Assembly: GCA_050050035.1 (NCBI GenBank)
Contig: JASFVB010000001.1
Location: forward strand, 1-48,959
From: Acidimicrobiia bacterium
GTDB taxonomy: Bacteria; Actinomycetota; Acidimicrobiia; Spongiisociales; ZC4RG35
Direction: 5' to 3'
Length of the DNA stretch: 48,959 nt
Within the stretch, counting starts at the first letter, position 1. Each line of letters begins with the position of its first letter. Positions 5,511-48,700 of this stretch are shown here, one piece after another. Made by a program: the position numbers and the translations under genes. The notes beneath the pieces were generated by a model. It saw only the letters and a program-made list of their open reading frames with translations, did no database searches and was not told the origin of the DNA.

Positions 5511-6500
5511 CTAGAAGGGCTTGTCGGACGGGCCCTTGCGGACGACGGCATTCCAGACCGTCTCGTAGTGATCGCGGTCGAAACGGTCGACCTGTGGCAG
5601 CACGAACTCTTCCCAGGCGTGACGCAGGGGGTCTTCGCGGTCGGCGAAGATGAGCAGCCCGGTGGGGAGACGGTCCAGCACCGAGCGCAAGGAGAGTGGT
5701 GTCTCCACCCTGGTGCCGGTGTCTGGGGTGTCGAACGAGGCGTTGATCTCGATCGTCAGCCGGGCGATCGCATCGACGTATACGTCCTTGAGGTGTGGGT
5801 AGCGCCGTTCCAACATCGCCTTCACCTGGTCTTCGCTGGGGAACGTCTTCTCCCAGATGACCCAACGGTCGGCAAACGCCTTGTTCAGGGTCTGCGTCCC
5901 GGCGTAGTCGCGGATGTCGGTGGGGTTCATCGTGCCAAACATGCGAACGTCGTCGCGAAGACTCACCGTCTCACCGTTGGGCAGATCGAGGGCGGCGTAG
6001 CGATCGAGCAGTCCGTGGAGTGCGAACAAGGTCTCGGCACCCGCCGCGTTCAACTCGGAGAGGTTGAGCAGGGCCGGTCCACGCAGCGCCCGGGTGATGT
6101 CACCGTCCTCCCAACGGCTCTCGGTGCCTCCTTTGCCGTCACCGTGGAGGTGCGTCGAGCCGATGAGCGTCACGTCCCTGACCTCACCCGTGAGCGGGAT
6201 TCGGAAGTAGGGGAGCCCCATGGCAGCGGCAAACTGCTCGATGTCGTGATCCTTGCCGGTTCCCATGTGGCCGCGGACGGCGACATGAAGTGGGACCAGC
6301 CCTTCGGCCTCGGCTCGTCGGGCCTGCTCGACCTGAGCGAACCGATAGAGCATTCCCAGATCGACGTAGTGCGGGTCGGGCTCGGGGATCTTTCGCATCC
6401 GCAACTCGCTGTCGGCGAGGTCACTCGGAACCTCGAACTTCTCCAGCTCGATGGCAGGGCCCTGACCGGATGGGTCGTCGAACACGACGTTGTCAGGCAA
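5511..6500 (-). CDS. CobS-like / MoxR-class AAA+ ATPase with non-canonical Walker motifs
   Basis: GHMGTGKDHDIEQ aligns to CobS GTGKSTHIEQ. LLNLSEL sits at the Walker B position, TMNP at sensor 1, and DRW is present. The gene overlaps the upstream VWA gene by 8 nt. Confidence 0.8.
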   Translation of the reverse strand: MPDNVVFDDPSGQGPAIELEKFEVPSDLADSELRMRKIPEPDPHYVDLGMLYRFAQVEQARRAEAEGLVPLHVAVRGHMGTGKDHDIEQFAAAMGLPYFRIPLTGEVRDVTLIGSTHLHGDGKGGTESRWEDGDITRALRGPALLNLSELNAAGAETLFALHGLLDRYAALDLPNGETVSLRDDVRMFGTMNPTDIRDYAGTQTLNKAFADRWVIWEKTFPSEDQVKAMLERRYPHLKDVYVDAIARLTIEINASFDTPDTGTRVETPLSLRSVLDRLPTGLLIFADREDPLRHAWEEFVLPQVDRFDRDHYETVWNAVVRKGPSDKPF

Positions 6501-8580
6501 TTGCTTTCTCCTTCTCGTAGTACTCCGATGCGCGCAGCCACCATGTGTCCATTCCCGAGTAGGCGAGGCTGCGTCTCAGGGCCCCTCGGGTGCCATCGAC
6601 CATGGCCGCCGTCAGCTGATCGGGCTGTTCGACGACCTCGTGACGTCGATAGGCCTGGTCGACGGTGTGGTCACCGATGCCAATGCCGATGACGGTCGTG
6701 CCGGTCGCCTCGACTGATTCGACGGTCTTGGTCAGTGCCTCCACCGAGCCACGTGTCATCCCGTCTGCGAGGACCATCAGTATGCGAACGTCGGCGCCGA
6801 GTCTTGCCATTCTCTCCGAAGCGTGGACGACGTTGTACTCGTCGACGTTCGCCGCCTTCTCGAAGAGCGAGACAGGAGGAGCCGACCGAGTGTCCTTGCG
6901 GGCCAGCGTCGACGCCTTTCTGGGGTTCATCGCGGTGTAGAAGAGCCCCGCCAACGTGGCCTGTGAGTCACGCCATCTCCGATCGAATGGCTTCACCATG
7001 TAGTGGTTGACCGTGGAGGTGAGCCGGTCCGCCGCCGAGCCCTGGGTTCGCTTCAAACCTGCGGTCGCTGCCGATCGGCCACGAACGTAGGTGTCCTCGG
7101 TGTCGTCTGGCCGAGCGGCGAACCCTCGATTGAACAGGGCAACCTCGAAGTCGATCTGTAGCTCGTCACACAACCTCGCCATGCTCCATGCGCCGAGGAG
7201 TGCCGCCGGCATCGCCCATTGTGTTCCGGCGTGGGCTCGTCTGCCCGGGCTCAGCATCGATGCCGACCCGTCAACCAGCAGGGACACCGCGTAGCGACGA
7301 CGTGTTCGGGACGCCCGACGCTCGTACAGACGCTGATAGAGCCCGGCGCCGATGAAGAGAGCTGCATGTGGGGAGACGTCACCCTGGTCGAATCCTGACC
7401 TCAGCCCTCGACGCTGGTTGGCTGCGAATAGCGGGTACAGCTCTCCCGACACGTGTCTTTGATCGACCGACCAGCGTCGTGAGGCGTCGGCGATGGCAGC
7501 CATCCCCTCCTCTCCGAATCCGGCGAAGGCGAACGGGATGGGGCTGACGAGGAGCTTGCCTCCCTGGCCGGTCGGTAGGAAGACCTGGGGTGCCTGGCTG
7601 ACACGAAGCAGTTGGCTCGTCGACTCGTCATCCGCCAGGTCGGACGCTCCTTTCTGGTCCGACTCACCGGATCGGGCGTCTGCCGATCGCCTCGTGTCCT
7701 GGTACGACTCGGCGTCGGTGAGTATCGGCGACGTCAGCCGGACCGTGTCGACCCCCTCGGCAGCCTTGTCCGCGTCGGTCTTCTCCAAGGCCTTGCGCTG
7801 GGCGTTGGTCGCAGTGTCGGGGGCCTCGTTGATCAGACCGTTGGCACGGGCGATCGCTTCGAGCTCGAGAGCGAGCTGCGCCACGTACCACGGATCGTCA
7901 GACTCGGCCGCTTGCCGGCAATGGTCCGTGGCGTCGTCGAGGGCCACGGCGGCCCGCGCCTCGAATCTTCTCTCGAGGAGCTCTCTCTCCACGTATCCGG
8001 CCGTCAGCAGGAAGCAGCCGAGGACGAACTGGCTGAGAGCACCGGAGCGTTGAATGGCCTGGCCGAGCGACGACATGTAGAGGTCCTCGAGCACCGATCT
8101 CGCTCCGGGGTAGATCGACAGGCCCTGCGACTCCTGACGGGCATCCTCCAGTGAGAAGAAGAGAACCTCGGCGACGGGCTTGTCGGTCCTCTCCAGTGCG
8201 GTGAGCAGGTCCATCTCGGCTTCGGGGACCGTCTCCCCGTCGATTGGCCACTCGTCGGGGAGCTGGCGGACATCGTCGAGGTTGGTGGACACCAGATGCA
8301 GCACCTCGTGGAGGGCGGATGCAAGCGCGACCTCGTCCGGTGTGACCGGGGCGTTTCGGTGATAGGCGGCCTGGAAGATGCGTGGATCGCACACGACCTC
8401 GTCCGAGGACGCCGACGACTCGGATCCGAGCCTGACCCGAAGGTTGGGGTTCTCGGAGAGACTGCGCGCCAGCCGTGTGACAGCAGGCGCGACACGCTGA
8501 TAGCGGCCGACCACGGCCTCGATGGCCTGGTCTTCAGGGCCGATCAGGTCGGTGAGGAATGTCTGGCTGCGTTCGCGCAC
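6493..8580 (-). CDS. CobT-like VWA-domain protein with N-terminal HExxH region
   Basis: VWA MIDAS (metal-ion-dependent adhesion site) motif DGSAS at 7258-7272, a C-terminal VLADG...IGIGIG segment, HEVLH at 8296-8310, and a long acidic low-complexity linker. Confidence 0.75.
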   Translation of the reverse strand: MRERSQTFLTDLIGPEDQAIEAVVGRYQRVAPAVTRLARSLSENPNLRVRLGSESSASSDEVVCDPRIFQAAYHRNAPVTPDEVALASALHEVLHLVSTNLDDVRQLPDEWPIDGETVPEAEMDLLTALERTDKPVAEVLFFSLEDARQESQGLSIYPGARSVLEDLYMSSLGQAIQRSGALSQFVLGCFLLTAGYVERELLERRFEARAAVALDDATDHCRQAAESDDPWYVAQLALELEAIARANGLINEAPDTATNAQRKALEKTDADKAAEGVDTVRLTSPILTDAESYQDTRRSADARSGESDQKGASDLADDESTSQLLRVSQAPQVFLPTGQGGKLLVSPIPFAFAGFGEEGMAAIADASRRWSVDQRHVSGELYPLFAANQRRGLRSGFDQGDVSPHAALFIGAGLYQRLYERRASRTRRRYAVSLLVDGSASMLSPGRRAHAGTQWAMPAALLGAWSMARLCDELQIDFEVALFNRGFAARPDDTEDTYVRGRSAATAGLKRTQGSAADRLTSTVNHYMVKPFDRRWRDSQATLAGLFYTAMNPRKASTLARKDTRSAPPVSLFEKAANVDEYNVVHASERMARLGADVRILMVLADGMTRGSVEALTKTVESVEATGTTVIGIGIGDHTVDQAYRRHEVVEQPDQLTAAMVDGTRGALRRSLAYSGMDTWWLRASEYYEKEKAIA

Positions 8581-12655: not shown

Positions 12656-14302
12656 CTACTCACTGGTCCCGGTGCGGACGTCCGGGGCGCCGAGACGGGC
12701 AGCATCTGCGGTTCGATCGTCGGGCTGAGACTGTGAGTCGAGCTCGGCGCGGACACGAGCCAGATAGTGGTCTATCTCACGGTCGACCGTGCTCTCGTCC
12801 CAACCGAGGACGTCGGCCATGACTGCGGCGACTCTCGGGGCGGCCTCCACCCCCCGGTCACGTGTCTCGATCGACAGCCGGGTGCGACGGGTCAGCACAT
12901 CATCGAGGTGAAGTGCGCCTTCGTGTGTTGCCGCATAGGCGGCCTCCGCCATCAGATACGGGGCGTCGTCGACGATCGGCTCACCGAGCGCCGGGTTGGA
13001 GTCGACGAGGGCGTGGATGTCTCGCGTCATGGTCCCGTAGCGGGAGTTGAGCCGATCGTCGCTGTGGGGTGCCACGCCCACCAGTGGTATCGACTCGGTG
13101 GTCGACTCGGGCACGGGCCGCCCCACGTAGCCGGTGACGGCGTCCACGGCATCACGTGCCATCACGCGGTAGGTCGTGTACTTGCCTCCGGCGACAGTGA
13201 CCATCCCGCTGCCGTGGTCACGCACGGCGTGCTCGCGGCTCAGCCGGGACGTGTCCTCGGACTCTCCTTTGAGGAGCGGTCGAAGACCGGCGTAGACCCC
13301 GACGATGTCCGCGGCGGTGATGGGACGCTTCAACGCCGTGTTGACCCATGTGAGCAGATACTCGATATCGGATCGGCTCGCTGCCGGATGTGCTCGCCCC
13401 AGCTCCCATGGCGTGTCGGTGGTGCCGACGATCCAATGCCGGCCCCAGGGGATCACGAACAACACGCTGACTTCGGTTCGGAGGAGAACGCCGGTCTGGG
13501 AGTCGATGCGGTCTCGGGGAACCAGGAAGTGAATCCCCTTGGATGCCCGAACGTCGATTCCGTGCTCTCCGGCCAGGTCTTCGACGTCATCCGTCCACAC
13601 ACCGGTGGCATTGACGACCGACTTCGTCGGGATCGTCAGCTCCGTTCCCGTCTCGAGATCGACTGCACGCGCACGGACGATGTGACCCTTCTCGAACTCG
13701 AATCCGGTGACCCTGACACTCGAGGCTGCCATGGCGTCGTTGGCGACGGCCGTTCGGGCCACCGTCATGGTGTGACGAGCGTCGTCGACAACACAGTCCC
13801 AATAGCGAACACCCCCGACGGCGTCGAGGTCCGGGGACAGACGACCGAGCCGCTCACGGCCCAGATGCTGATGCCAAGGGAGGGGGTTGTCGGCGAGCCG
13901 AGCCAGGATCTCGTAGAGAAAGACGCCGGCGCCCACGTACAAGCGTTCCCAGAACCTGTGTTTGAGCGGGTATATGAAGGACGTGGGTGACACCATGTGA
14001 GGGCAGAGACGATTGATCATCAGGTTCCGCTCCCGCAGTGCCTCCCTCACGAGCCCGAACGAGAAGCTCTCGAGATAGCGGAGCCCACCGTGAAACATCT
14101 TCGAGGACCGGCTGGAGGTCCCGGACGCATAGTCACGTTGTTCGAGAAGACCGACACGGAGCCCGCGGCTGGCCGCATCCAAGGCGGCGCCGGCACCGCT
14201 CACGCCGGCACCGATCACGAGCACGTCGAGCCGGCCGTCCGCCATACGCGTCAGGTGCTCCCGCCGCTGGTCTCGGCTCAGAGCCGATGAGTCCGAAGCC
14301 AT
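12656..14302 (-). CDS. glpD: FAD-dependent glycerol-3-phosphate dehydrogenase
   Basis: The dinucleotide fold VLVIGAGVSGAGAALDAASRG is followed by SGTSSRSSKMFHGGLRYLE. 548 aa. Confidence 0.9.
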   Translation of the reverse strand: MASDSSALSRDQRREHLTRMADGRLDVLVIGAGVSGAGAALDAASRGLRVGLLEQRDYASGTSSRSSKMFHGGLRYLESFSFGLVREALRERNLMINRLCPHMVSPTSFIYPLKHRFWERLYVGAGVFLYEILARLADNPLPWHQHLGRERLGRLSPDLDAVGGVRYWDCVVDDARHTMTVARTAVANDAMAASSVRVTGFEFEKGHIVRARAVDLETGTELTIPTKSVVNATGVWTDDVEDLAGEHGIDVRASKGIHFLVPRDRIDSQTGVLLRTEVSVLFVIPWGRHWIVGTTDTPWELGRAHPAASRSDIEYLLTWVNTALKRPITAADIVGVYAGLRPLLKGESEDTSRLSREHAVRDHGSGMVTVAGGKYTTYRVMARDAVDAVTGYVGRPVPESTTESIPLVGVAPHSDDRLNSRYGTMTRDIHALVDSNPALGEPIVDDAPYLMAEAAYAATHEGALHLDDVLTRRTRLSIETRDRGVEAAPRVAAVMADVLGWDESTVDREIDHYLARVRAELDSQSQPDDRTADAARLGAPDVRTGTSE

Positions 14303-14328
14303 TGCCTGTCCACCTTACGATTGAGCAG

Positions 14329-15228
14329 ATGAAAGTAGGTGTCCAGCTCCCCGAGGTCGAACGCGAGGTCACCTGGGGTGAGGTAGTCGACATCGCCCGT
14401 GCGGCCGAGGATTGCGGATTCGACTCCATCTGGGTCGGCGATCATCTCCTCTATCGCGACGACCTGGGCTCGAGCGGGCCGTGGGAGGCCTGGACGTCCC
14501 TTGCCGCGCTGGCCCAGGAGACCAATCGGGTCGAGCTGGGCCCGTTGGTGGCCGCGACATCGTTCCATTCCCCGGCGATGATCGCCAAGATGGCGTCCAC
14601 GGTGGATGAGATCAGCGAGGGTCGTCTCATCCTGGGTTTGGGGGCAGGATGGAATCGGGTCGAGTACGACGCCTTCGGTTTCCCCTTCGATCACCGGGTA
14701 TCTCGATTCGACGAGGCGTTCACCATCATCCGGACGCTGATCCGAGACGGTCACATCGACTTCGAGGGCGCCTACTACACGCACCGGGACATGGAGCTCC
14801 TTCCCCCGGCCAGACCTGACATGAAGATCCTGCTCGGATCGAACGGACCACGCATGCTGCGTATCGGCGCGCCACACGTCGACATGTGGAACAGCTGGTT
14901 CGTTTGGTTCGGGAACCGCCCCGAGGGCTTGGCGTCTCTGCTCGACGAGCTGTCCGCCGCCTGCCACGACACCGGACGCGACCCGTCGACGGTGGAGAAG
15001 ACCGCGGCCGTGTTGGTCGAGTTGGAGCGGGGCAGCGGGCGGAGAGCGGGGAGTGAGGAACGGCCCGAGGCTCCGCCGATCAGGGGGTCGCACGAGGAGA
15101 TCGCCGAACGGCTTGGTGCCTTCGCCGCCGCAGGCATCTCACATCTCCAGCTGGTGGTCGACCCGATCGACACCGCAGCTGTAGAGGAGTTGGCCCTCGT
15201 GAGGGCGTTGCTCGACGGATATGGTTGA
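14329..15228 (+). CDS. LLM-class (luciferase-like) flavin/F420-dependent oxidoreductase
   Basis: MKVGVQLP...GFDSIWVGDHLL...ILGLGAGW is a typical LLM pattern. The start is trimmed to ATG 14329 because upstream ORF sequence overlaps glpD. Confidence 0.8.
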   Translation: MKVGVQLPEVEREVTWGEVVDIARAAEDCGFDSIWVGDHLLYRDDLGSSGPWEAWTSLAALAQETNRVELGPLVAATSFHSPAMIAKMASTVDEISEGRLILGLGAGWNRVEYDAFGFPFDHRVSRFDEAFTIIRTLIRDGHIDFEGAYYTHRDMELLPPARPDMKILLGSNGPRMLRIGAPHVDMWNSWFVWFGNRPEGLASLLDELSAACHDTGRDPSTVEKTAAVLVELERGSGRRAGSEERPEAPPIRGSHEEIAERLGAFAAAGISHLQLVVDPIDTAAVEELALVRALLDGYG

Positions 15229-17695: not shown

Positions 17696-19174
17696 CTAGG
17701 GGTTGGCGAATCTGGCGATGACTTCGGCGAAGCTCTCGATCGACCCCTCCTTCGCCACGTCGGGAAGGGAGACGATGGAGTGTCTGGCTCCGGAGTCCGA
17801 GTATGCGTGGAACAGCTCGACGAGATGGTCGACGGTGCCGGCATTGACACGGGTCATGTATTCCTCCGCGGAGGTGTTGCGATCACGCATGGCCTCGACG
17901 CGCCGGCGAAGGCTCGTGCTGTCCTCGGCGGCCATGGCGTTGGTGAGATGTGTGACAGTGATCTCTCGGGGATCGCGGTCGACATCGTCGCAATGACGCC
18001 GGAGCACTTCGACCTTGTGACGGACAGTGCCCGGGTCGCCGAAGAGGTTGCAGGCGTCGGCGTACTCGGCCACGAGTCGGAGCGTCTTCTTCTCACCCGA
18101 GCCCCCGACCATGATCGGGATCGGATCCTGGATCGGCCGTGGGTAGCAGACCAACTCCCTCGCCGAGAAGGTCTTCCCCTCGAACGCGGGTGAGCCCTTG
18201 CCCCACAACTCGGGCAACATCCGGAGGGTGTCCTCGAGCAGGTCGTATCGATCGGCGGCAGGGGGGAACTCGATCCCGTAGGCGGCGTGCTCGGCCTCGT
18301 CCCACGCCACGCCGAGGCCACAGATCGCCCGACCGCCGGAGAGCACGTCGAGGGTGGCGATCATCTTCCCCAGAACCACCGGATGCCGATGGGTGATTCC
18401 TGTCACCAATGCCCCCATTCGGATACTCGACGTCGTGCCGGCGACATAGCCGAGAGCGGTGTATGCCTCGGGGATGTCTTCCCATGGCCGCCCGACCGCG
18501 TGGATCTGCCGGAAATGGTCCATGAGCCAGATGTCGCGAAACCCGGCCTTCTCGGCACGCACGGCAATCGCGGCGAGACGCTCTCCAAGGTGTGCGGAGT
18601 CCCAGTCGAACCTGGAGACCAACAGCCCGAAGCCGTGAGACTCACTCCGTCGATCTGACGTCGCTGATCGCGTGGCCGCGGCGATGACCGGGGGCACGGC
18701 AGCAACTGGCTGTTGGGTGTGGACACCGTCGAACGCCTCGTCCTCGACCAGTCCGCGAATCTCGGCGAATCGCCTGATCTGACGATTGAGGACCGTCTTG
18801 GGGATGGGTCGGTCCCGAGAGGAGTTTCGCTCTGCACACATCGCCGGTGGGGTGTCGAACACGATGCAGTGAGCCGGGATGCCCGCATCGTGTGCCATGC
18901 GGACCCAGCGGGCGCGTGACTCGGCGTCGAAGCCGAGCGTGTCGACCACCGTCGTCATACCCCGTCCCAAACGCTCGGCCACGACGATCTCGAGGATCTG
19001 AAATGCCGCTGTGCCGGCTGTCTGGTCATCTTCGCCGGCTCCGACCACCGACCGCAGCGTGTCTGAGGACACCACCTCGGTGGGCTCGAAGTGCTCCGAC
19101 GCCCAGGTCGACTTTCCCGATCCGCTCGGCCCGACGAGCACGACCAGGCACGGGGCGGGAAGACGCAACTCCAT
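17696..19174 (-). CDS. fusion protein: N-terminal Pnkp-like P-loop kinase domain + C-terminal LLM-class (F420-type) oxidoreductase
   Basis: The P-loop GPSGSGKST (19106-19132) and TEVVSSD...TAAF...TVVD resemble the polynucleotide kinase domain. From about residue 175 onward the sequence is LLM-like (WLMDHF...GLGVAWDE). Confidence 0.8.
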   Translation of the reverse strand: MELRLPAPCLVVLVGPSGSGKSTWASEHFEPTEVVSSDTLRSVVGAGEDDQTAGTAAFQILEIVVAERLGRGMTTVVDTLGFDAESRARWVRMAHDAGIPAHCIVFDTPPAMCAERNSSRDRPIPKTVLNRQIRRFAEIRGLVEDEAFDGVHTQQPVAAVPPVIAAATRSATSDRRSESHGFGLLVSRFDWDSAHLGERLAAIAVRAEKAGFRDIWLMDHFRQIHAVGRPWEDIPEAYTALGYVAGTTSSIRMGALVTGITHRHPVVLGKMIATLDVLSGGRAICGLGVAWDEAEHAAYGIEFPPAADRYDLLEDTLRMLPELWGKGSPAFEGKTFSARELVCYPRPIQDPIPIMVGGSGEKKTLRLVAEYADACNLFGDPGTVRHKVEVLRRHCDDVDRDPREITVTHLTNAMAAEDSTSLRRRVEAMRDRNTSAEEYMTRVNAGTVDHLVELFHAYSDSGARHSIVSLPDVAKEGSIESFAEVIARFANP

Positions 19175-27319: not shown

Positions 27320-28444
27320 GTGAGTTCACGCAAGTCGGGGCTGGGCCGTGGGCTCGATGCGCTGATTCCGTCCGGGGGCAAATCCGGGTCGATGACAAGA
27401 CAACCTCAGAGAGAGGGCGGGACATCGATGTTCGGTCTCATCAACCCTGATGGCAGTGTTCGCGAGAAACTGCCCGTGACTCTCGACGAGACGAGAGCGC
27501 TCTACGCCGACATGGTCGAGGCGCGGGCCTTCGACGACAAGTCGATAGCCATGCAGCGGCAGGGTCGTCTCGCGACGTACGCGCCGTTTCGCGGCCAGGA
27601 GGCGGCTCAAATCGGTGCCGCGTCGGCTCTCCGGCCGGACGACTGGGTCGTGGCCACCTATCGAGATGCCGCCCTCAACTGGCGAGCCGGCTATCCGTGG
27701 GGTCTGCTGACACTTGGGCGGACCGGAGACGAGCGCGGTGGTCGAGTGCCCGACGAGGTCAACATCCTCCCGCCTTCCATCACCGTCGGCGGGCACATGA
27801 TTCACGCCGTCGGCCTGGCGTGGGCAGAGGTTCTCATGGGCTCGGACCGCATCGCCCTGACCTCATTTGGTGACGGAGCGACGTCTGAGGGCGACTTCCA
27901 CGAAGCGATGAACATCTCCGCCGTCTTCAACACACCCACGGTCTTCTTCTGTCAGAACAACGGATATGCCATCTCCAACCCGACGTCTGCGCAGACACGG
28001 TCGGAATCGTTGGAGATCAAGGCCGCGGCCTACGGGATGCCGGGGATTCGAGTGGACGGCAATGACGTGGTGGCCGTGTTGGTGGCGGTGAGGGAGGCCG
28101 CATCGTTGGCCCGGTCCGGCGAAGGGCCGAGCTTCGTAGAGGCGGTGACCTACCGCATGGGGCCACACACGACGGCGGATGACCCGAGCAGATACCGGTC
28201 CGAGGTCGAGGCCGAGTTGTGGCTGGAGAGAGATCCCCTGGAGCGCGTGCGACGACTCCTAGAAGCCCAGGAGGCGTGGACGGCGGAGTGGCAGGACGAG
28301 TTGGAGACCCAGGCTGCGGAGACGATCGATAAGGCTGTGGAGTGGGCGGAGGCGGTGCCGGAGCCGACGTTCGAGGAGATGCTGGGTCGCATGTACGCCG
28401 AGCCGACCACGCCGCTGCGTGAGCAGATGGACGGTCACGGATGA
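27320..28444 (+). CDS. 2-oxoacid (pyruvate/branched-chain) dehydrogenase E1 component alpha subunit, TPP-dependent
   Basis: TPP motif GDGATSEGDFHEAMN. GTG 27320 lies 6 nt after AAGGAG. An alternative start is ATG 27428 (MFGLINPDG). Confidence 0.88.
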   Translation: MSSRKSGLGRGLDALIPSGGKSGSMTRQPQREGGTSMFGLINPDGSVREKLPVTLDETRALYADMVEARAFDDKSIAMQRQGRLATYAPFRGQEAAQIGAASALRPDDWVVATYRDAALNWRAGYPWGLLTLGRTGDERGGRVPDEVNILPPSITVGGHMIHAVGLAWAEVLMGSDRIALTSFGDGATSEGDFHEAMNISAVFNTPTVFFCQNNGYAISNPTSAQTRSESLEIKAAAYGMPGIRVDGNDVVAVLVAVREAASLARSGEGPSFVEAVTYRMGPHTTADDPSRYRSEVEAELWLERDPLERVRRLLEAQEAWTAEWQDELETQAAETIDKAVEWAEAVPEPTFEEMLGRMYAEPTTPLREQMDGHG

Positions 28445-28486
28445 GCCGTCGCCGGCACCCGTCCTTGGCTTCTGTGGGGAGGCGAC

Positions 28487-29464
28487 GTGGCTGAGGTCAA
28501 CCTCGCCCAGGCGCTCAACGGTGCGTTGGACACCGCTCTCGCGGTCGACGAGCGAGTCGTCCTCCTCGGCGAGGACATCGGGCAGACCGGCGGTGTGTTC
28601 CGTATCACCGACGGTCTCCGCACCCGTCACGGACGCAAACGCGTTTTCGACACACCCGTCGCCGAGTCCGGAATAGTCGGAGCGGCCTTTGGCATGGCCG
28701 TCGCCGGTCTTCGTCCGGTCGCCGAGATCCAGTTCATGGGCTTCTCCTATCCCGCCTACGACCAGATCATCAACCACGTGGCCCGAATTCGGAATCGAAC
28801 CGCGCATCGCTACTCGGCCCCGATGGTCATTCGCATCCCGTACGGCGGCGGGATCGGCGCCGCCGAGCACCACTCCGAGTCGACGGAGGCGATCTATGCG
28901 CATATCCCCGGGTTGAAGGTCGTCGTCCCCTCGACGCCCCACGATGCTCGGGGTCTTCTGCTCGCCGCCATCGAGGACCCCGACCCGGTGGTCTTCCTCG
29001 AGCCGATCCGGCTCTACAGGGCGGTGAAGGAGGACATCCCGGACACCTACTTCACGACCGAGATCGGCCCAATTCGCCTCGAGCGTCCCGGTGACGACAT
29101 CACGCTGATCAGTTGGGGGGCGATGATGAGAGAGACCCGCGCCGCGGCCGACGTGCTGGCCGGAGATGGTGTGTCGGTCGAGGTGATCGATGTGAGGACG
29201 TTGGCTCCCCTGGATCGTGAGGGGGTCGTTGCCTCGGCAGCCAAGACAGGCCGTGTCGTGATCATTCACGAAGCGCCGTTGACCGGTGGCTTTGGGGGGG
29301 AGATCGCGGCGACGATCTCCGAGCAGGCCCTCTACTCGCTTGATGCCCCGGTGCGGAGAGTGACCGGTTGGGACACGGTGTTCCCCCTGAAGAGGTCGGA
29401 GGGCCACTACCTTCCCTCCGTAGACCGAATCGTTGCTGCTGCCCGCGAGACACTGGAGGCATGA
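28487..29464 (+). CDS. 2-oxoacid dehydrogenase E1 component beta subunit
   Basis: LLGEDIG..GGVFR.T..L, a transketolase-like pyrimidine-binding and C-terminal domain pattern. GTG start after GGGGAGG. Confidence 0.92.
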   Translation: MAEVNLAQALNGALDTALAVDERVVLLGEDIGQTGGVFRITDGLRTRHGRKRVFDTPVAESGIVGAAFGMAVAGLRPVAEIQFMGFSYPAYDQIINHVARIRNRTAHRYSAPMVIRIPYGGGIGAAEHHSESTEAIYAHIPGLKVVVPSTPHDARGLLLAAIEDPDPVVFLEPIRLYRAVKEDIPDTYFTTEIGPIRLERPGDDITLISWGAMMRETRAAADVLAGDGVSVEVIDVRTLAPLDREGVVASAAKTGRVVIIHEAPLTGGFGGEIAATISEQALYSLDAPVRRVTGWDTVFPLKRSEGHYLPSVDRIVAAARETLEA

Positions 29465-30772
29465 GTGGCGCGTGAGTTCAGGCTCCCCGACATCGGTGAG
29501 GGGCTGACCGAGGCGGAGATCGTGCGGTGGCTCGTCGCCGAAGGCGACGACGTCGAGGAAGATCAGCCCATAGTCGAAGTGGAGACCGACAAGGCGGTCG
29601 TCGAGATCCCGTCTCCATTTGCCGGTGTCGTCGTTGCCCACGGAGGCGCCGAGGGAGAGATGATCGCCGTCGGAGACGTCCTGGTCACCATTGGCGAGCC
29701 CGGTGAGTCTGCGGTGTCTGCGCCGACGTCGACCGATGACGTTGAGCGTGTGGAGGTCGGGGTTGAGGCCGCTCCCATAGTCGGCACTCTCAGCGACCAG
29801 GCAGAGGTGCTCGAACCGGCGAGTGGGGATCCCGGCGGAATGCCGGTGACGATCCAGGCTCTCCCCATCGTTCGGAAGCTGGCCCGTGAGAACGACGTCG
29901 ACCTCGAGACCGTCGCCGGCACCGGTCCCGGCGGCCGGATCACCCGGGCGGATATCGAGGCTGTGATCGCAGGACGGGGCACGGTCGAAGCGGAGCTCGC
30001 CGAGGCGGTCCAACCGTCTCCAGAGCCGGAAGCGCTCGTGACCGAGGAAGTCGAGTTCACGCCGGAAGCGACCCGCGGTGGGGAGGCCGGCGAAGACGAG
30101 CGCCGCCCTCTGACCCGTCTGCGGCGGACGATCGCAGCCAACATGACCCAGAGTTGGACCGAGACTCCCCATGTGACGACGTTCGACGACGCCGACGCGA
30201 CGAGGTTGCTCGAGGTTCGCAAGGCCCTCGGGGATCGTCACGACATGAAGATCCCCATCGAGGCCCTCGTCATCAAGGCCGTTCTCCCGGCCTTGGACGA
30301 GTTCCCCGAGCTCAACGCGACCCTGGAGGGCGACGATCTCGTGCTTCACCACGCACGTGACATGGGAATCGCAGTCGACACTGCAGAGGGGCTGATGGTG
30401 GCCGTGATACGAGACGCCGACTCACGCAGCGTCCTCGACCTCGCCAAGGAGATCCGTCGTCTCGGTGACGGTGCCAGGGAGCGAACCCTGACCCCGTCCG
30501 AGTTGACCGGCCAGACCTTCACGGTCTCGAACATCGGGGCCGTCGGAGGTGGCCACGGGACTCCGATCATCCCCCCGGGAACGACGGCGATCTTGTCGGT
30601 CGGAGTGGCCCGTCTGCGCCCCGTCGTCTACGAAGGCGACCTGGCGATCGCTCCGGTGATGCCATTGTCGCTCTCGTACGACCATCGGGTCATCGACGGG
30701 GCGGTGGGGCGACGCTTCATGGCGCTCGTTTTGGAGAACCTCGAGGAGCCGGCACTGTTCCTGGCAGTTTGA
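29465..30772 (+). CDS. dihydrolipoamide acyltransferase (E2) with one lipoyl domain
   Basis: Lipoyl-Lys motif VETDKAVVEIPSP, a peripheral subunit-binding domain (PIVRKLARENDVDL..GTGPGGRI), and the catalytic motif SLSYDHRVIDGA. Confidence 0.92.
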   Translation: MAREFRLPDIGEGLTEAEIVRWLVAEGDDVEEDQPIVEVETDKAVVEIPSPFAGVVVAHGGAEGEMIAVGDVLVTIGEPGESAVSAPTSTDDVERVEVGVEAAPIVGTLSDQAEVLEPASGDPGGMPVTIQALPIVRKLARENDVDLETVAGTGPGGRITRADIEAVIAGRGTVEAELAEAVQPSPEPEALVTEEVEFTPEATRGGEAGEDERRPLTRLRRTIAANMTQSWTETPHVTTFDDADATRLLEVRKALGDRHDMKIPIEALVIKAVLPALDEFPELNATLEGDDLVLHHARDMGIAVDTAEGLMVAVIRDADSRSVLDLAKEIRRLGDGARERTLTPSELTGQTFTVSNIGAVGGGHGTPIIPPGTTAILSVGVARLRPVVYEGDLAIAPVMPLSLSYDHRVIDGAVGRRFMALVLENLEEPALFLAV

Positions 30773-31338
30773 TGCCACACGTCCACGTGCTCACCTACGA
30801 CGAGACCACTGGTGTGGCACGGCGGGAGTACGACTCTGCGCGACGAAGGGCCGGTCGTATATGGAACATCGTCTCGATCCAGAGCCAGCTACCCGAGGTC
30901 ATGCGTGACTCGATGCGCCTCTATCAGTCGATCATGTTCGGGCCGTCACCGCTGACACGGGCACAGCGGGAGATGATGGCCGTCGTCACGTCGCAGGCAA
31001 ACGACTGCCACTACTGAATCGCGGCCCATCTGCACGACCTCCGTGCCGAGGTCGAAGACCCGACGGTGGCGGACGACGTGGCGGCTGACTGGAGGAGCGC
31101 AGACCTGTCGTCAACAGATCGCGCTCTCTGTGAGTACACCGAGAAGCTGACGGAGTCACCTGCCGACGTCGGTGAGGAGGACGTAGACCAACTGCGAGCG
31201 GCCGGGCTCGACGATGCAGCGATCTCGAGTGCCACACAGGTTGTGGCCTACTTCAACTACATCAACCGGATCGCCGAGGGTCTTGGCGTGCCGATGGAGA
31301 CCTGGCTCAACGCCGACGGCACCGTGAGACATACCTAG
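30772..31338 (+). CDS. AhpD-like / carboxymuconolactone decarboxylase-family peroxidase-related protein with in-frame TGA (codon 82): candidate selenoprotein, or a pseudogene
   Basis: ORFs 30769-31017 and 31066-31338 share one frame and are separated by a single TGA (31015-31017). The motif reads NDCHY[TGA]IAAH, against the family pattern CxxCxxxH. The ATG overlaps the E2 stop codon (TGATG). Confidence 0.6.
31035..31054 (+). promoter_or_regulatory. candidate bacterial SECIS hairpin (CGACCUC-CGUGCC-GAGGUCG)
   Basis: 7-bp perfect stem with a 6-nt loop containing GU. It starts 17 nt after the in-frame UGA. Confidence 0.35.
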
Positions 31339-31351
31339 GGTCTGCCCGGCC

Positions 31352-32824
31352 ATGGCAAAGGACAAGAAGAAAAAGAAGAAGGCCCCGAAGTCGAAGACCC
31401 CGAAGATCAAGGACCAGAAGGTCACCAAACAGCTGCGGGGAGAGTTCGGTGGCGAGGAAGTCCCGTACACGGTCACTGCGGCGACGCATGTGTTCGAGAC
31501 CGGCGGAGAGAAGGTCTCGTTCTTCTACATGGCCTACACCAAGGACGAGGCCGATCCGGCCACGAGACCCATTCTGTTCTGCTTCAACGGTGGCCCGGGA
31601 TCGTCGACGGTCTGGCTGAACCTCGGCCTCTTTGGCCCCAAGCGGATGGAGTTCGACGAAGAGGGGTTCAAGCTGGGCATGCAAGGGCGTCTCATCGACA
31701 ACGAGTACTCGATTCTCGACGTCGCCGATGTGGTGTGCATAGATGCCATGGGGACCGGCTTCAGCCGTACCGCCGAGAAGGGCGAGGAGAAGAAGTTCCA
31801 CCACTTCAAAAAGGACATCGAGGCGTTCAGCGAGTTCATCGTCCACTACCTGAATCGCAACGGGCGCTGGGCGTCGCCCAAGTACCTGTCGGGTGAGAGC
31901 TATGGCACCCTGCGTGGAGCGGGCATCGCGCACGAGTTGTTCGAGAACCACAACGTGGAGTTCAACGGGATCGTCTTCATCTCGGTGATCTTGAACTACC
32001 AGACGTCGGCCATCGGGGAGAACATGCTGGTCCACCCGGGCAACGACCTGCCGTTCGCTCTCTATCTACCCACCTATGCGGCAACGGCCCATTACCACGG
32101 CATGGTGGCCGAGGAGTACCGGGAGATGCCGCTCCGCGACTTCCTGGACGAGGTCGAGGACTTCGCCCTCGGTGAGTACTGGACGGCCCTGGCCAAGGGA
32201 GACACACTCGATGACGCCTCGCGTAAGGCCGTGATGGACAGGCTGCACGCCTACACGGGCCTCGGTAACCAGTTCCTGGACCAATACGACCTCCGTATCC
32301 ACATCATGCGTTTCTGCAAGGAGTTGCTCCGTGATCGCAAGCGCACCGTGGGTCGGCTGGATTCGAGGTACGTGGGCATCGATCATCCCGGTGCCAGCAC
32401 CAGTCTCGAGTCCGACCCCAGCGGGGATGCGACACGGGGTGTCGCGGCGTCGGCGCTGAACCAGTATCTGCGGAATGAGATCGGTTTCGAGTCCGACGAC
32501 GTCTACAACGTCCTCTCCATGGATGTCTGGAAGAACTGGGATTACGAGGACTTCAAGGGCAGGTATGTCGACACGTCGGAGAAGCTCCGCGAGCTCCTTT
32601 CCCGCTCACGGGGGACGCGGGTCATGGTGGCCAACGGCTACTACGACCTGGCGACGCCGCATTTCGCCACCGAGTACACGTTCTCCCACATGGGTCTGGA
32701 CCCCGACGTGCGGGGGAACGTGCAGATGGAGTACTACGACGCCGGGCACATGATGTACGTGCGCCGTGCGTCGTTGGAGAAGCTGGCCACCGACATCCGG
32801 ACCTTCGTCGCCGAGACGTCTTGA
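31352..32824 (+). CDS. S10 family serine carboxypeptidase-like peptidase with poly-Lys N-terminus
   Basis: NGGPGSS, the catalytic Ser motif SGESYG and a C-terminal DAGHMMY. N-terminus is MAKDKKKKKKAPKSK. Confidence 0.8.
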   Translation: MAKDKKKKKKAPKSKTPKIKDQKVTKQLRGEFGGEEVPYTVTAATHVFETGGEKVSFFYMAYTKDEADPATRPILFCFNGGPGSSTVWLNLGLFGPKRMEFDEEGFKLGMQGRLIDNEYSILDVADVVCIDAMGTGFSRTAEKGEEKKFHHFKKDIEAFSEFIVHYLNRNGRWASPKYLSGESYGTLRGAGIAHELFENHNVEFNGIVFISVILNYQTSAIGENMLVHPGNDLPFALYLPTYAATAHYHGMVAEEYREMPLRDFLDEVEDFALGEYWTALAKGDTLDDASRKAVMDRLHAYTGLGNQFLDQYDLRIHIMRFCKELLRDRKRTVGRLDSRYVGIDHPGASTSLESDPSGDATRGVAASALNQYLRNEIGFESDDVYNVLSMDVWKNWDYEDFKGRYVDTSEKLRELLSRSRGTRVMVANGYYDLATPHFATEYTFSHMGLDPDVRGNVQMEYYDAGHMMYVRRASLEKLATDIRTFVAETS

Positions 32825-41638: not shown

Positions 41639-43198
<1,560 letters not shown>

Positions 43199-43206
43199 GA
43201 GAACCC

Positions 43207-44484
43207 GTGACACATCTGGACCAGGAAGCAGCAAGACTCGCCGAGGAGTGGGCGAACAGCCCCCGTTGGGATGGGGTCGCCCGTGACTACACGGCCGAGG
43301 ACGTCGTCCGTCTCCGGGGCAGCATCAGAGAGCAGCACACGCTTGCCTATCGCATGGCGGAGAAGTTGTGGGATCTCCTCCACGCCGAGGACTACGTCAA
43401 CGCCCTCGGTGCCCTCAGCGGAGGCCAGGCGGTGCAGATGGTCAAGGCCGGGCTGAGGTCGATCTATCTCTCCGGGTGGCAGGTTGCGGGTGATGGCAAC
43501 CTGGCAGGTGAGGTCTACCCGGACCAGTCCCTGTATCCCGCCAACTCGGCGCCGGCAATGGTGAAGCGGATCAACAACGCCCTACGTCGCGCCGACCAGA
43601 TCCACTGGGCCGAGGGTGACACCGACATCGACTGGTTTGTCCCCATCGTCGCCGACGGTGAGGCCGGCTTCGGGGGCGCTCTCAACGTCTTCGAGATCAC
43701 CAAGGCCTTCATCCAGGCGGGAGCCGCCGGGGTGCACCTGGAAGATCAGTTGGCCGCCGAGAAGAAATGCGGCCACATGGGCGGCAAGGTGCTCGTGCCC
43801 ACGAGTCAGCACATTCGCACCCTCCAGTCGGCCCGACTCGCCGCGGACGTCATGGGTGTCCCGACGGTCGTCGTCGCCCGCACCGACGCCAACTCGGCGA
43901 CATTGCTCACCTCCGACGTCGATCCCCGCGACCGGGAGTTCATAGTGGGGGAAAGGACCGCAGAAGGCTTCCATCAGGTGAGTGGCGGGCTCGACTCGGC
44001 AATCGCCCGCGGACTCTCCTACGCACCGTATTGCGACCTGATCTGGTGTGAGACAGCCAAGCCAGACCTCGAAGAGGCACGTCGCTTCGCCGATGCGATC
44101 CACTCCGAGTACCCACACAAGATGCTGGCGTACAACTGCTCGCCATCGTTCAACTGGAGCGCCCACCTGGACACGGACACCATCTCTCGCTTCCAAAAGG
44201 AGCTGGGGGCGATGGGGTATCGCTACCAGTTCATCACACTCGCCGGGTTCCACGCTCTCAACGAGTCGATGTTTCAGTTGGCCAGTGGATACGCCGAGAC
44301 CGGCATGCCCGCATACGTCGAGCTCCAGGAGCGCGAGTTCGCCGCGGAGAGCCGTGGCTACACGGCCACCAAGCACCAACGCGAGGTCGGAGCCGGCTAC
44401 TTCGATCTGGTCAGCCAGGCGGTCTCGGGTGGTGAGTCCTCGACGCTCGCCTTGAAGGGGTCGACGGAAGAGGATCAGTTCTAG
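43207..44484 (+). CDS. aceA: isocitrate lyase
   Basis: Catalytic motif KKCGHMGGK and an N-terminal [28 protein letters not shown] 43207 follows AGGAGAA. The upstream part of the track ORF overlaps aceB. Confidence 0.92.
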
Positions 44485-44548: not shown

Positions 44549-46495
44549 ATGAGCGAGCGCCCCACGACGACATGGCACAAGGTGGCCGACCTCGACGAGC
44601 TTCCCGAAGGCCGGGTGAAGACCGTCACGGTGGGGAGACGATGGCTCGCTCTCACTCATCACCAGGGCTCCTACGGCGTCCTCGACAATCGCTGCCCGCA
44701 CCAGGGAGGGCCACTCGGGGAGGGATCGATAGAGAAGGGATGGCTGCGCTGCCCGTGGCACGGCTACGACTACAACCCCCTCGACGGATCGCCTCCAGCG
44801 GGCTTCGACGACGCCCCGACCTGCTTCCAGACCGAGGTGAGAGAGGACGGGGTCTACGTGGCACTGCCACCCGAGAGCGAGAGGGTGCGGACCGTTAGCG
44901 ACGTTCTCGTGGAGACGATGGTGAACTGGGGGGTGACCCACGTCTTCGGGATGGTGGGTCACTCCAATCTCGGGTTCTCCGACGCCATGAGGGAGGCCGA
45001 GGAGAGAGGTGATTTGACCTTTGTCGGGGTGCGGCATGAAGGCGCTGCCTCGTTCGCGGCGAGTGCGTACGGCAAGGTCACCGGTGAGCTCGCGGCCTGC
45101 TTCGGCATTGCCGGGCCCGGCTCCACGAACCTGATGACAGGCCTCTACGACGCCAAGGTCGACCGGGCGCCCGTGCTGGCCATCTCGGGACAGGTCCCGT
45201 CGAAGGTGAAGGGGAGAGGAGCCTTCCAGGACCTCGACCTCGAGGCAGCCTTCTCCGACGTCGCCCGATACTCAGAGACCGTCCTGCCCGGTGGCGACTA
45301 TGCCGAGCTGATGAACATGGCGTGCAAGCACTCCCTGGTGGAACGTGACGTCACCCACCTGATGCTGCCCGACGAGGTGCAGGTGATCCCGAGCGACACG
45401 CTTCCGGGACAGCGCGAAGGGCGGATCTCGTCGCGCGCCATCGCCCCTCCCGACGACGTGCTCGATGCCGCGGTCCGGCAGATATCCCAAGCCGAGCGTC
45501 CCCTCTTCATCGTGGGGGCTGGGGCGCGCCACGACATGGGGCCGATCGTCGACTGCGCCGAGAAGATGGGGATCCCGGTCGTCACCACATTCAAGGCCAA
45601 AGGGCAGATCCCCGACACACACCCACTCGGGTGTGGCGTTCTCGGCCGAAGTGGCACACCGGTTGCTTCGTGGTTCATGAACGAGAGCGATCTGCTCGTC
45701 GTCTTCGGCGCGTCGTTCTCCAACCACACCGGCATCGCCGACTACAAGCCCACCATCCAGGTCGATTCTGACCCGCTGGCCCTCGGCCGGTTTCATCCTG
45801 TGGACATCCCGGTCCAAGGCGATGTCGGAGTCACCGCCCGGCTCTTCGCCGAGCGGATGCCCGCAGACACCATGTTCAGCGACCGGTCGAACGAGGTCGC
45901 CGAACGATGGGGTATCTGGCGCGAGGAGAAGAAGAGCCGTCGCGCTGACGATTCCGGCGAAGGCGTCAACTCCGCGGCCATCTTCGACAGCCTCAGCCGG
46001 CTAGCCCCGCCTGACGCGGCGATGGCCGTGGACGTGGGCAACAACACCTACTCCTTCGGCCGGTACTTCGAAGCCGAGCGGCAGTCGATCGTCATGTCCG
46101 GCTATCTCGGCTCGATCGGCTTCGCGTTCCCCGCGGCGATGGGGCTGTGGGCGGCAGTCGGTGGGGAGCGCCAGGTCATCGCGGTTGCCGGTGACGGCGG
46201 GTTCGGGCAATACGCCATGGAGTTCAACACCGCGGTGAAGCACGACATGGACATCACGTTGATCCTCCTCGTGAACGACGAATTGGGGAAGATCAGCAAG
46301 GAACAGCGTGGAGTGGCGTTCGACGTGTGGCAGACGGAGCTGACCAATCCAGACTTCGCGGAGTTCGCCCGCAACTGCGGGGGATTCGGGGTCAGAGTGG
46401 GCAAGGTCGATGAGCTCGACGACGGAGTCAGTGCCGGTCTGGCCCATCGCGGCCCGGCAATCGTCCAGATCGACGCCGATCCGTTGCTCGTCTAG
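44549..46495 (+). CDS. fusion protein: N-terminal Rieske [2Fe-2S] domain + thiamine-pyrophosphate enzyme (pyruvate oxidase/acetolactate synthase/glyoxylate carboligase superfamily)
   Basis: Rieske motifs CPH...CPWH lie at 44693-44761. These are followed by the TPP N-domain (GIAGPGSTNL), a middle domain, and the TPP-binding motif AGDGGFGQY...LLVND. Confidence 0.8.
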   Translation: MSERPTTTWHKVADLDELPEGRVKTVTVGRRWLALTHHQGSYGVLDNRCPHQGGPLGEGSIEKGWLRCPWHGYDYNPLDGSPPAGFDDAPTCFQTEVREDGVYVALPPESERVRTVSDVLVETMVNWGVTHVFGMVGHSNLGFSDAMREAEERGDLTFVGVRHEGAASFAASAYGKVTGELAACFGIAGPGSTNLMTGLYDAKVDRAPVLAISGQVPSKVKGRGAFQDLDLEAAFSDVARYSETVLPGGDYAELMNMACKHSLVERDVTHLMLPDEVQVIPSDTLPGQREGRISSRAIAPPDDVLDAAVRQISQAERPLFIVGAGARHDMGPIVDCAEKMGIPVVTTFKAKGQIPDTHPLGCGVLGRSGTPVASWFMNESDLLVVFGASFSNHTGIADYKPTIQVDSDPLALGRFHPVDIPVQGDVGVTARLFAERMPADTMFSDRSNEVAERWGIWREEKKSRRADDSGEGVNSAAIFDSLSRLAPPDAAMAVDVGNNTYSFGRYFEAERQSIVMSGYLGSIGFAFPAAMGLWAAVGGERQVIAVAGDGGFGQYAMEFNTAVKHDMDITLILLVNDELGKISKEQRGVAFDVWQTELTNPDFAEFARNCGGFGVRVGKVDELDDGVSAGLAHRGPAIVQIDADPLLV

Positions 46496-47644: not shown

Positions 47645-48700
47645 ATGAGCATCGTCCACGTCGTGGGCACCGGCACGATCGGTGAGCCTCTCATCGGTCT
47701 CCTGGCAGACGACAAGGAGCAATTCGGCATCGACGAGGTGACGTTTCACAAGAGGACGCCCCTCGTCAGCGAGAAGGCCAAGGTCGAGGATCTGGTCCGC
47801 CGGGGCGCGATCCTCGCCGTGGACGAGGATCGCCGGTCGACATTCGAGGAGCTGGGCCACACCCCGAAGTACGGGACCATGGAGGCCATTGAGCGGGCGA
47901 CTGTGGTCATCGACTGCACTCCGGTCGGAAACCAGATGAAAGAGGACATCTACAAGGACGTGACCGGGCCGATCGGGTTCATGGCCCAGGGCTCGGAGTA
48001 CGGATTCGGGAAGATGTACGCCCGGGGCATCAACGACGAGGCGCTCGTCCGGGGAGAGGACAAGTTCCTCCAGATCGTGAGCTGCAACACGCACAACATC
48101 TCGGTGTTGATCAAGGCGCTGGCGATGGACCTGGACGGGACCAACCACCTCGAGAACGGTCGTTTCCTGTGTATGCGACGCGCCAACGACATCAGTCAGG
48201 ACACCGGGTTCATCGCGAGCCCGGTGGTCGGAGGTCATGGCGACGAGCGGTTCGGCACGCATCATGCCCGGGACGCCCACGACCTCTTCACCACACTCGG
48301 CTATGACCTCAACATCCATTCGTCGGCGATCAAGCTCAACACCCAGTACATGCACTCACTGCATTTCTCCCTGACCCTCGACCGGGAGATCGACATGGAC
48401 GAGATCCGGGATCGTCTCGACGCCAATACGAGAGTTGCCGTGACCCACAAGCAGTCGGCCAACCAGGTGTTCTCATTTGGGCGGGACCACGGCTACTACG
48501 GGCGGATCATGAGCCAGGCGGTGGTTTCGCTCGAGACTCTGGCAGTTCGCAACGGCAACGAGATCGTCGGGTTCTCCTTCACCCCTCAGGACGGCAACCC
48601 CCTCCTATCGACGGTCGCGGCCATTCTCTGGTACCTGGACCCGGAGACCCGTGACGACCGCATCGACGTCCTCCGCAGGTACTTGTTCCCCGAGATCTGA
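47645..48700 (+). CDS. type II (archaeal-type) glyceraldehyde-3-phosphate dehydrogenase-like oxidoreductase
   Basis: Rossmann motif VVGTGTIGE, VIDCTP, a catalytic-Cys motif VSCNTHN (archaeal GAPDH has SCNTT) and YMHSLHF. The assignment is by motif recollection only. Confidence 0.55.
   Translation: MSIVHVVGTGTIGEPLIGLLADDKEQFGIDEVTFHKRTPLVSEKAKVEDLVRRGAILAVDEDRRSTFEELGHTPKYGTMEAIERATVVIDCTPVGNQMKEDIYKDVTGPIGFMAQGSEYGFGKMYARGINDEALVRGEDKFLQIVSCNTHNISVLIKALAMDLDGTNHLENGRFLCMRRANDISQDTGFIASPVVGGHGDERFGTHHARDAHDLFTTLGYDLNIHSSAIKLNTQYMHSLHFSLTLDREIDMDEIRDRLDANTRVAVTHKQSANQVFSFGRDHGYYGRIMSQAVVSLETLAVRNGNEIVGFSFTPQDGNPLLSTVAAILWYLDPETRDDRIDVLRRYLFPEI

Follow-up and report, generated by a model that had tools for sequence, protein, structure and literature searches.

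The 48,959-nt stretch of DNA analyzed here (the window; contig JASFVB010000001.1 of assembly GCA_050050035.1, from an Acidimicrobiia bacterium) contains an AhpD-like gene at 30772-31338 whose frame is interrupted by a TGA at the position where related proteins have the second Cys of a CxxC redox motif. We established that this UGA is conserved, that the half of the gene downstream of it is translated, that the RNA just past it is under a constraint that fits a bacterial selenocysteine insertion sequence (SECIS), and that the product belongs to the TIGR01926 family. On the strength of these sequence comparisons, we consider it very probable (roughly 0.93) that the UGA encodes selenocysteine (Sec) with the help of a bona fide bacterial SECIS, and that the gene is a member of a known family of AhpD-like selenoproteins. 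A pseudogene, a split gene and read-through with a standard amino acid, all weighed below, jointly retain a small share of the probability.

Translation of the frame at 30772-31338 yielded a single in-frame TGA (31015-31017), no other stop before the TAG at 31336-31338 and no frameshift. When joined, the halves form a product of 81 residues, U and a further 106 residues, 188 in total, in which the motif around the TGA reads N-D-C-H-Y-[TGA]-I-A-A-H. The first-pass annotation of this DNA had described two same-frame open reading frames (ORFs) parted by one TGA and amounting to 188 residues when joined, had placed the TGA at the second Cys of a CxxCxxxH motif, and had pointed to a perfect 7-bp hairpin, CGACCUC-CGUGCC-GAGGUCG, at 31035-31054, beginning 17 nt past the TGA. 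Our translation agreed with the first of these claims, alignment to the Cys homologues bore out the second, and the hairpin was found at the coordinates given.

We assigned the protein to its family by profile searches, run with Cys substituted at the TGA. The product matched the NCBIfam model TIGR01926, 'peroxidase-related enzyme', with 155.6 bits (cutoff, 81.8; residues 3-175 on profile positions 2-175 of 178), the AhpD core domain model TIGR00778 with 43.3 bits (cutoff, 27.8) and the Pfam CMD domain PF02627 with 46.3 (cutoff, 23). Membership in the mycobacterial-type AhpD family TIGR00777 was rejected (17.6 bits; cutoff, 191.95), the protein being AhpD-like in its working but of another subfamily, as were two other models of AhpD-related selenoproteins, NF041238 (CFYUT type; 61.3 against 175) and NF053654 (YciW-related; 19.9 against 310). 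In an alignment of 16 diverse homologues (alignment A1), E67 and H86 were invariant and C79 was nearly so; we take the AhpD signature to have the form E-x11-C-x2-C/U-x3-H. The nearest solved structures were those of the CxxC AhpD-like proteins 6k40, 2oyo and 3c1l, whose second Cys aligns with the TGA; for PDB 6k40, the alignment (residues 17-173, E = 2e-28) sets NRCVYCAVSH against NDCHY[U]IAAH. An exact database look-up of the 90-residue C-terminal fragment gave no match.

To follow the TGA among relatives, we sampled the 120 best database homologues (P0001-P0120), one genome per species (80 loci) and metagenomes in a scan seeded with the Cys-form clade (75 loci). In the alignment of orthologues, which the first-pass annotation had recommended, the hairpin was conserved and the homologous codon was TGA in all 80 species-representative genomes, drawn from about ten phyla; these loci span the Acidimicrobiia (best identity, 81%), Candidatus (Ca.) Actinomarina, Chloroflexota, Gemmatimonadota, Planctomycetota, Latescibacterota, Acidobacteriota, Thermoleophilia and others. 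Despite the Cys-form query, 72 of the 75 metagenome relatives also had TGA, and 3 had TGC. Public protein sets mishandle the family: among the 120 best homologues, the column holds 'W' in 41, Cys in 22 and 'R' in 2, and another 51 are half-length fragments, of which 47 are C-terminal pieces starting just past the site and 4 are N-terminal pieces ending at ...CHY; the other 4 are gapped in other ways. Where we read the DNA, the codon behind the 'W' was TGA translated with genetic code 4 (L001 and L004), and the fragments came from genes split at the TGA (L002, L003 and L006). Sequencing error was rejected as the source of the TGA, since the codon recurs in more than 150 independent assemblies.

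The sequence 3′ of the TGA is under purifying selection. Comparison of the window with ten relatives gave ratios of nonsynonymous to synonymous substitution rates (dN/dS) of 0.11 to 0.33 downstream of the TGA, at a dS of about 1 to 2, which is near saturation. Residues H86, D89, R91 and E93 are invariant, and all of them fall after the TGA but before the first start codon available downstream. Given this selection and the position of the invariant residues, the downstream half is translated within the same protein. These results bear on an alternative raised in the first-pass annotation, namely that a TGC/TGT-to-TGA nonsense mutation inactivated an ordinary CxxC AhpD-like gene and left a pseudogene. 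A single base change would be enough for this, Cys-form orthologues occupy the same syntenic position (L088-L090 and L171), and the window is without Sec machinery, but we regard the pseudogene as excluded for practical purposes by the retention of the TGA in both scans, the low dN/dS past it, a frame free of further stops or frameshifts, and an RNA hairpin conserved with covariation. We also think it very improbable that the gene specifies two polypeptides, one of 81 residues and one of about 90 residues started at GTG 31066, that assemble post-translationally. Gene callers annotate the locus in this way, as they do the 47 C-terminal and 4 N-terminal fragments in public databases, but the starts of the C-terminal fragments vary (M, V or L, 1 to 20 residues past the TGA), and the first start in the window lies 16 codons downstream, so that the four invariant residues would be lost. 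Moreover, the stretch from the TGA to that start shows coding-sequence conservation, and the catalytic residue would be wholly absent from such an assembly.

The candidate SECIS, CGACCUC/CGUGCC/GAGGUCG, encodes (H)-D-L-R-A-E-V. The published model of a bacterial SECIS has a loop of 3 to 9 nt, an upper stem of 4 to 16 bp, a UGA-to-loop distance of 16 to 37 nt, a minimum free energy (MFE) of -7.5 kcal/mol or lower, and a G at loop position 1 or 2 that is usually followed by G or U (PMC13188914). The window hairpin falls within all of these limits, with a 6-nt loop, a 7-bp stem, an MFE of -10.5 kcal/mol for the 20-nt core and a UGA-to-loop spacing of 24 nt (31018-31041), an offset that is identical across relatives in an ungapped alignment. 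Its loop, C-G-U-G-C-C, has G and then U at positions 2 and 3, and the loop triplet in 159 TGA genes was CGG in 99 and CGT in 60. The earlier suggestion that the placement of the hairpin fits bacterial SECIS geometry is therefore upheld by the published criteria, and we found both covariation and synonymous constraint in addition. By single-sequence folding, the hairpin did not stand out in DNA of 64% G+C: for 31015-31075, z was -0.62, with 54 of 200 shuffles equally stable or better, and for 30995-31095, z was +0.33, neither value being significant. As the hairpin is unremarkable by itself, its significance has to come from comparison with relatives.

Among 83 distinct sequences aligned without gaps, 93.5% of the cells in the helix were paired, compared to 25 to 46% when the 3′ partner was slid. 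Pair 24:37 is C-G in 65 sequences and U-A in 14, the synonymous choice between GAC and GAU being tied to a Val/Ile change, and in several lineages CUC...GAG has become UUC...GAA. Double-sided changes occupied 33 cells of the helix against 9.6 ± 2.4 in shuffles, none of 500 reaching 33, although kinship among the sequences inflates these shuffle statistics, and this is one of several points that weigh against a Sec-encoding UGA with a SECIS. The hairpin overlaps the conserved peptide D-L-R-x-E-V, and its conservation is partly at the protein level. On the 20-nt core, 48 of 71 distinct hairpins pass the MFE criterion and 23 miss -7.5 kcal/mol. Rfam yielded no relevant family, either for the whole window at gathering thresholds or for 30960-31120 at E <= 10. 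A CxxC homologue (L170, 793-1374) has a perfect 7-bp hairpin, GACUUCCGGGACGAAGUC, with a CGG loop codon and a stability of -8.1 kcal/mol; a recent Sec-to-Cys conversion may have left this hairpin behind as a SECIS fossil. Finally, the window (49 kb, probably the whole contig) has no tRNA gene, hence no tRNA-Sec, and no selA, selB or selD.

Because the helix encodes D-L-R-x-E-V, and because the contrast between Sec and Cys forms comprises only six Cys sequences, we relied on codon controls within the gene, using 154 unique Sec-form genes. The loop codon for Arg91 was CGG in 96 genes and CGU in 58, with CGC, CGA and AGR absent, whereas at four other invariant Arg sites CGC made up 30 to 37% and all six codons were used. 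Similarly, the stem codon for Leu90 was CUC in 143 of 146 genes, compared to 59 of 148 at the control site Leu61, and the AT-rich Ca. Actinomarina genes retain CUC-CGG-UCG-GAG. The constraint falls on synonymous sites and therefore points to selection on the RNA, consistent with the G[G/U] loop rule.

In the six Cys-form genes examined, the helix was mostly weakened (-3.5 to -5.4 kcal/mol). One of them (L169) has a CGA loop codon and one broken pair, at -3.5 kcal/mol, and in the forms with a TxxC motif UAU disrupts a central pair, at about -5 kcal/mol. This would be the direction expected for decay of a SECIS after replacement of Sec, in a sample that is small (n = 6). The Cys-form orthologues at the same syntenic position (L088-L090 and L171; P0005-P0012 and P0014) read N-S-T-R-Y-C, the first Cys having changed to Thr. 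Such variants keep only the second motif position, which suggests that this position is the essential nucleophile, in agreement with the role of Cys133 in mycobacterial AhpD. We also observed Arg at the Sec position in P0013 (L005) and P0040. In L005 the codon (844-846) is CGA, one step from TGA, and the SECIS hairpin is fully intact at -10.5 kcal/mol; the CGA, seen in a single short contig, could have arisen by recent mutation, belong to an inactive allele or stem from misassembly. In the clade in which sel genes are linked to the AhpD-like gene (L037, L059, L061, L062, L072, L074, L085, L143-L151 and others), GGC (Gly) replaces GUC after Glu (column 38 of alignment A2). With this codon, 15 sequences lose the A-U pair 23:38 and core stability falls to about -5 kcal/mol; the SECIS of this clade may pair in another register or have additional pairs.

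We further looked for Sec machinery near the gene in relatives. Across all fetched loci, 5 of the 22 tRNA genes are tRNA-Sec, located 1 to 5 kb from the AhpD-like gene. Both selA and selB adjoin the AhpD-like gene in at least 10 loci of a Thermoleophilia/'Actinomycetes' clade. In L074 (8952-13916), the order is selC, AhpD-like gene, selB and selA (selA with 463 bits; cutoff, 267.9), such that the AhpD-like gene is flanked by tRNA-Sec on one side and by a convergent selB-selA pair on the other. This neighborhood constitutes strong guilt by association for the family. We note that one ORF of L074 (10859-14186, minus strand) comprises SelA and the N-terminal GTPase part of SelB, with the remaining SelB in another frame, which could mean that the genes overlap or that the sequence contains a frameshift or an assembly error. 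A scan of the window itself for other genes with an in-frame TGA identified ordinary gene boundaries only and no second selenoprotein.

The linkage of selC, selB and selA to the gene in relatives also argues against read-through of the UGA as a standard residue (Trp, Cys or Arg, inserted by a near-cognate tRNA or under a reassigned code), with the hairpin acting as a read-through stimulator. We judge this improbable, even though the Sec machinery of the source genome is only presumed, gene callers translated 41 homologues as Trp with code 4, and the CGA (Arg) variant exists. The site is aligned with a catalytic Cys, not with Trp, and the hairpin follows rules specific to SECIS elements, among them the G[G/U] of the loop. 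Reassignment of the genetic code was rejected because TGA is the normal stop of three neighboring genes, those for E1 alpha, E1 beta and E2 in the same operon.

For a Sec-encoding UGA, we propose that a ribosome arriving at 31015-31017 would encounter the hairpin at 31035-31054 acting as a SECIS, which would recruit SelB-GTP with Sec-tRNA(Sec), so that selenocysteine would be inserted as residue 82 and translation would proceed to the TAG at 31338. The predicted 188-residue product would be a thiol-selenol oxidoreductase of the AhpD/CMD fold with Sec at the second, presumably nucleophilic, position of the CxxC motif. Most likely, its substrate would be a peroxide or a peroxidase partner, reduced by way of a Cys79-Sec82 selenenylsulfide. 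By analogy with mycobacteria, this bond would afterwards be re-reduced, probably by the dihydrolipoyl arm of the co-transcribed E2.

The E2 in question is encoded directly upstream, in a pyruvate dehydrogenase (PDH)-type operon of which the AhpD-like gene would be the fourth gene and whose E1 alpha matches TIGR03181 above cutoff. The E2 stop TGA (30770-30772) and the selenoprotein ATG at 30772 overlap in a shared A, forming TGATG at 30770-30774. The order E1 alpha, E1 beta, E2, AhpD-like gene and S10 peptidase gene recurs at about 45 loci of a single Acidimicrobiia clade, Cys-form orthologues included, and was not found in any other phylum sampled. In L009, L011 and L110, an insertion of about 1 kb separates the E2 gene from the AhpD-like gene. 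Neither lpd nor ahpC is present within the window. In Mycobacterium tuberculosis, the lipoyl-E2 protein DlaT, together with Lpd and NADH, reduces AhpD, which in turn donates electrons to AhpC (PMC12028322, PMC8945050). By this analogy and on the basis of gene order, we tentatively suggest that the selenoprotein of the Acidimicrobiia clade might have its dedicated reductant in the dihydrolipoyl arm of the E2 encoded alongside it. If true, a family of selenoproteins that is still listed without a function would gain its first concrete and testable physiological electron donor, and the arrangement would be a Sec-based counterpart of the mycobacterial Lpd-DlaT-AhpD relay. The reports on AhpD-like selenoproteins (PMC1088965, PMC2398784, PMC13188914) do not mention linkage to a PDH-type E1-E2 operon, and the link is mildly new.

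In other respects, the window gene is typical of its selenoprotein family, which has been known since 2005, and is not new in kind. A 2005 study of the Sargasso Sea reported 27 AhpD-like (COG2128) sequences as selenoproteins of the CxxU type and predicted SECIS elements for them (PMC1088965); the Global Ocean Sampling selenoproteome of 2008 contained 299 sequences of 'AhpD-like 1', fourth by sequence number (PMC2398784); and the table of a 2026 review has the entry 'AhpD-like protein, TIGR01926, CxxU' (PMC13188914). The first-pass annotation was thus right that such proteins had been reported before. The window gene shares with them the TIGR01926 model, a CxxU motif with Sec in second place and, just downstream, a SECIS-like hairpin with G in a small apical loop; there is no essential difference, the window copy lying in a high-G+C Acidimicrobiia contig and in a PDH-type E1-E2 operon. 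The sequences of Ca. Actinomarina and the other marine relatives are presumably equivalent to the marine ones that those surveys reported. Some marine protein clusters of the family have hundreds of member sequences.

Deinococcus radiodurans DR_1765 and the PDB entries 6k40, 2oyo and 3c1l are of the same subfamily and share the E-x11-CxxC-x3-H region, but have Cys where the window has UGA; we assume that 6k40 is DR_1765. The CxxC motif of DR_1765 is required for H2O2 tolerance (PMC8945050). The AhpD of M. tuberculosis likewise has the CMD/AhpD fold and a CxxCxxxH site, and its lipoyl-E2 reductant has a parallel in the adjacent lipoyl-E2 gene of the window, but it belongs to a different subfamily (TIGR00777 was below cutoff here), and the E2 link in the window is known from the genome only. 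As for the RNA element, the bSECISearch consensus (PMC13188914) and the Escherichia coli fdhF SECIS are similarly stem-loops within the coding sequence just past the UGA, with a small loop of G followed by G or U and a spacing of 16 to 37 nt. The primary sequence of the fdhF element is unrelated to that of the window. Some relatives carry a GGUC tetraloop, as does the fdhF SECIS. Once the two ORFs are recognized as one Sec protein, the gene model is corrected and the organism stands out as one that probably uses Sec. The biological novelty is small; the E2-operon link and the selC/selB/selA neighborhood are leads to the function of the family.

Table 1. Coordinates of the AhpD-like selenoprotein gene, its elements and its neighbors in the window, with the related loci that share its gene order or are linked to sel genes
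Feature	Position	Strand	Details
AhpD-like (TIGR01926) selenoprotein coding sequence	30772..31338	+	188 codons including predicted Sec82, TAG 31336-31338; translation, profile matches
Redox signature E67-x11-C79-x2-U82-x3-H86	30970..31029	+	E67 30970-30972, C79 31006-31008, U82 31015-31017, H86 31027-31029
UGA codon 82, probably read as selenocysteine	31015..31017	+	Aligned with second Cys of CxxC in Cys homologues; TGA kept in relatives
Candidate bacterial SECIS core hairpin	31035..31054	+	5′ arm 31035-31041, loop CGUGCC 31042-31047 (G31043, U31044), 3′ arm 31048-31054
PDH-type operon upstream	27320..30772	+	E1 alpha 27320-28444, E1 beta 28487-29464, lipoyl E2 acyltransferase 29465-30772; NCBIfam matches, synteny
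Serine carboxypeptidase-like (Peptidase_S10) neighbor downstream	31352..32824	+	Pfam on identical protein and orthologue; synteny
Syntenic loci			L002, L008-L014, L088-L129 (many), L162, L171
sel-linked loci			L074, L037, L056, L059, L072, L085, L143, L145, L148, L151, L158

Several other genes of the window were recorded in passing. In a 648-residue ORF (44549-46495, plus strand), an N-terminal Rieske [2Fe-2S] domain is fused to a complete thiamine-pyrophosphate enzyme with the TPP_enzyme N, M and C domains, a combination that looks unusual. A 492-residue ORF (17696-19174, minus strand) combines an AAA_33 kinase-like domain with a luciferase-like monooxygenase, and a second luciferase-like monooxygenase is encoded at 14038-15228. 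Two ORFs with good coding signal had no Pfam match, one of 695 residues (6493-8580, minus strand), which adjoins an AAA_5 (MoxR-like) ATPase gene at 5511-6500, and one of 351 residues (47645-48700, plus strand). Malate synthase and isocitrate lyase genes of the glyoxylate shunt are adjacent at 41639-44484 (plus strand); their longest ORFs overlap by about 300 nt, and the isocitrate lyase start therefore probably lies further downstream. The same pair of genes is found near the same PDH-type operon in L171 (10108-12439).

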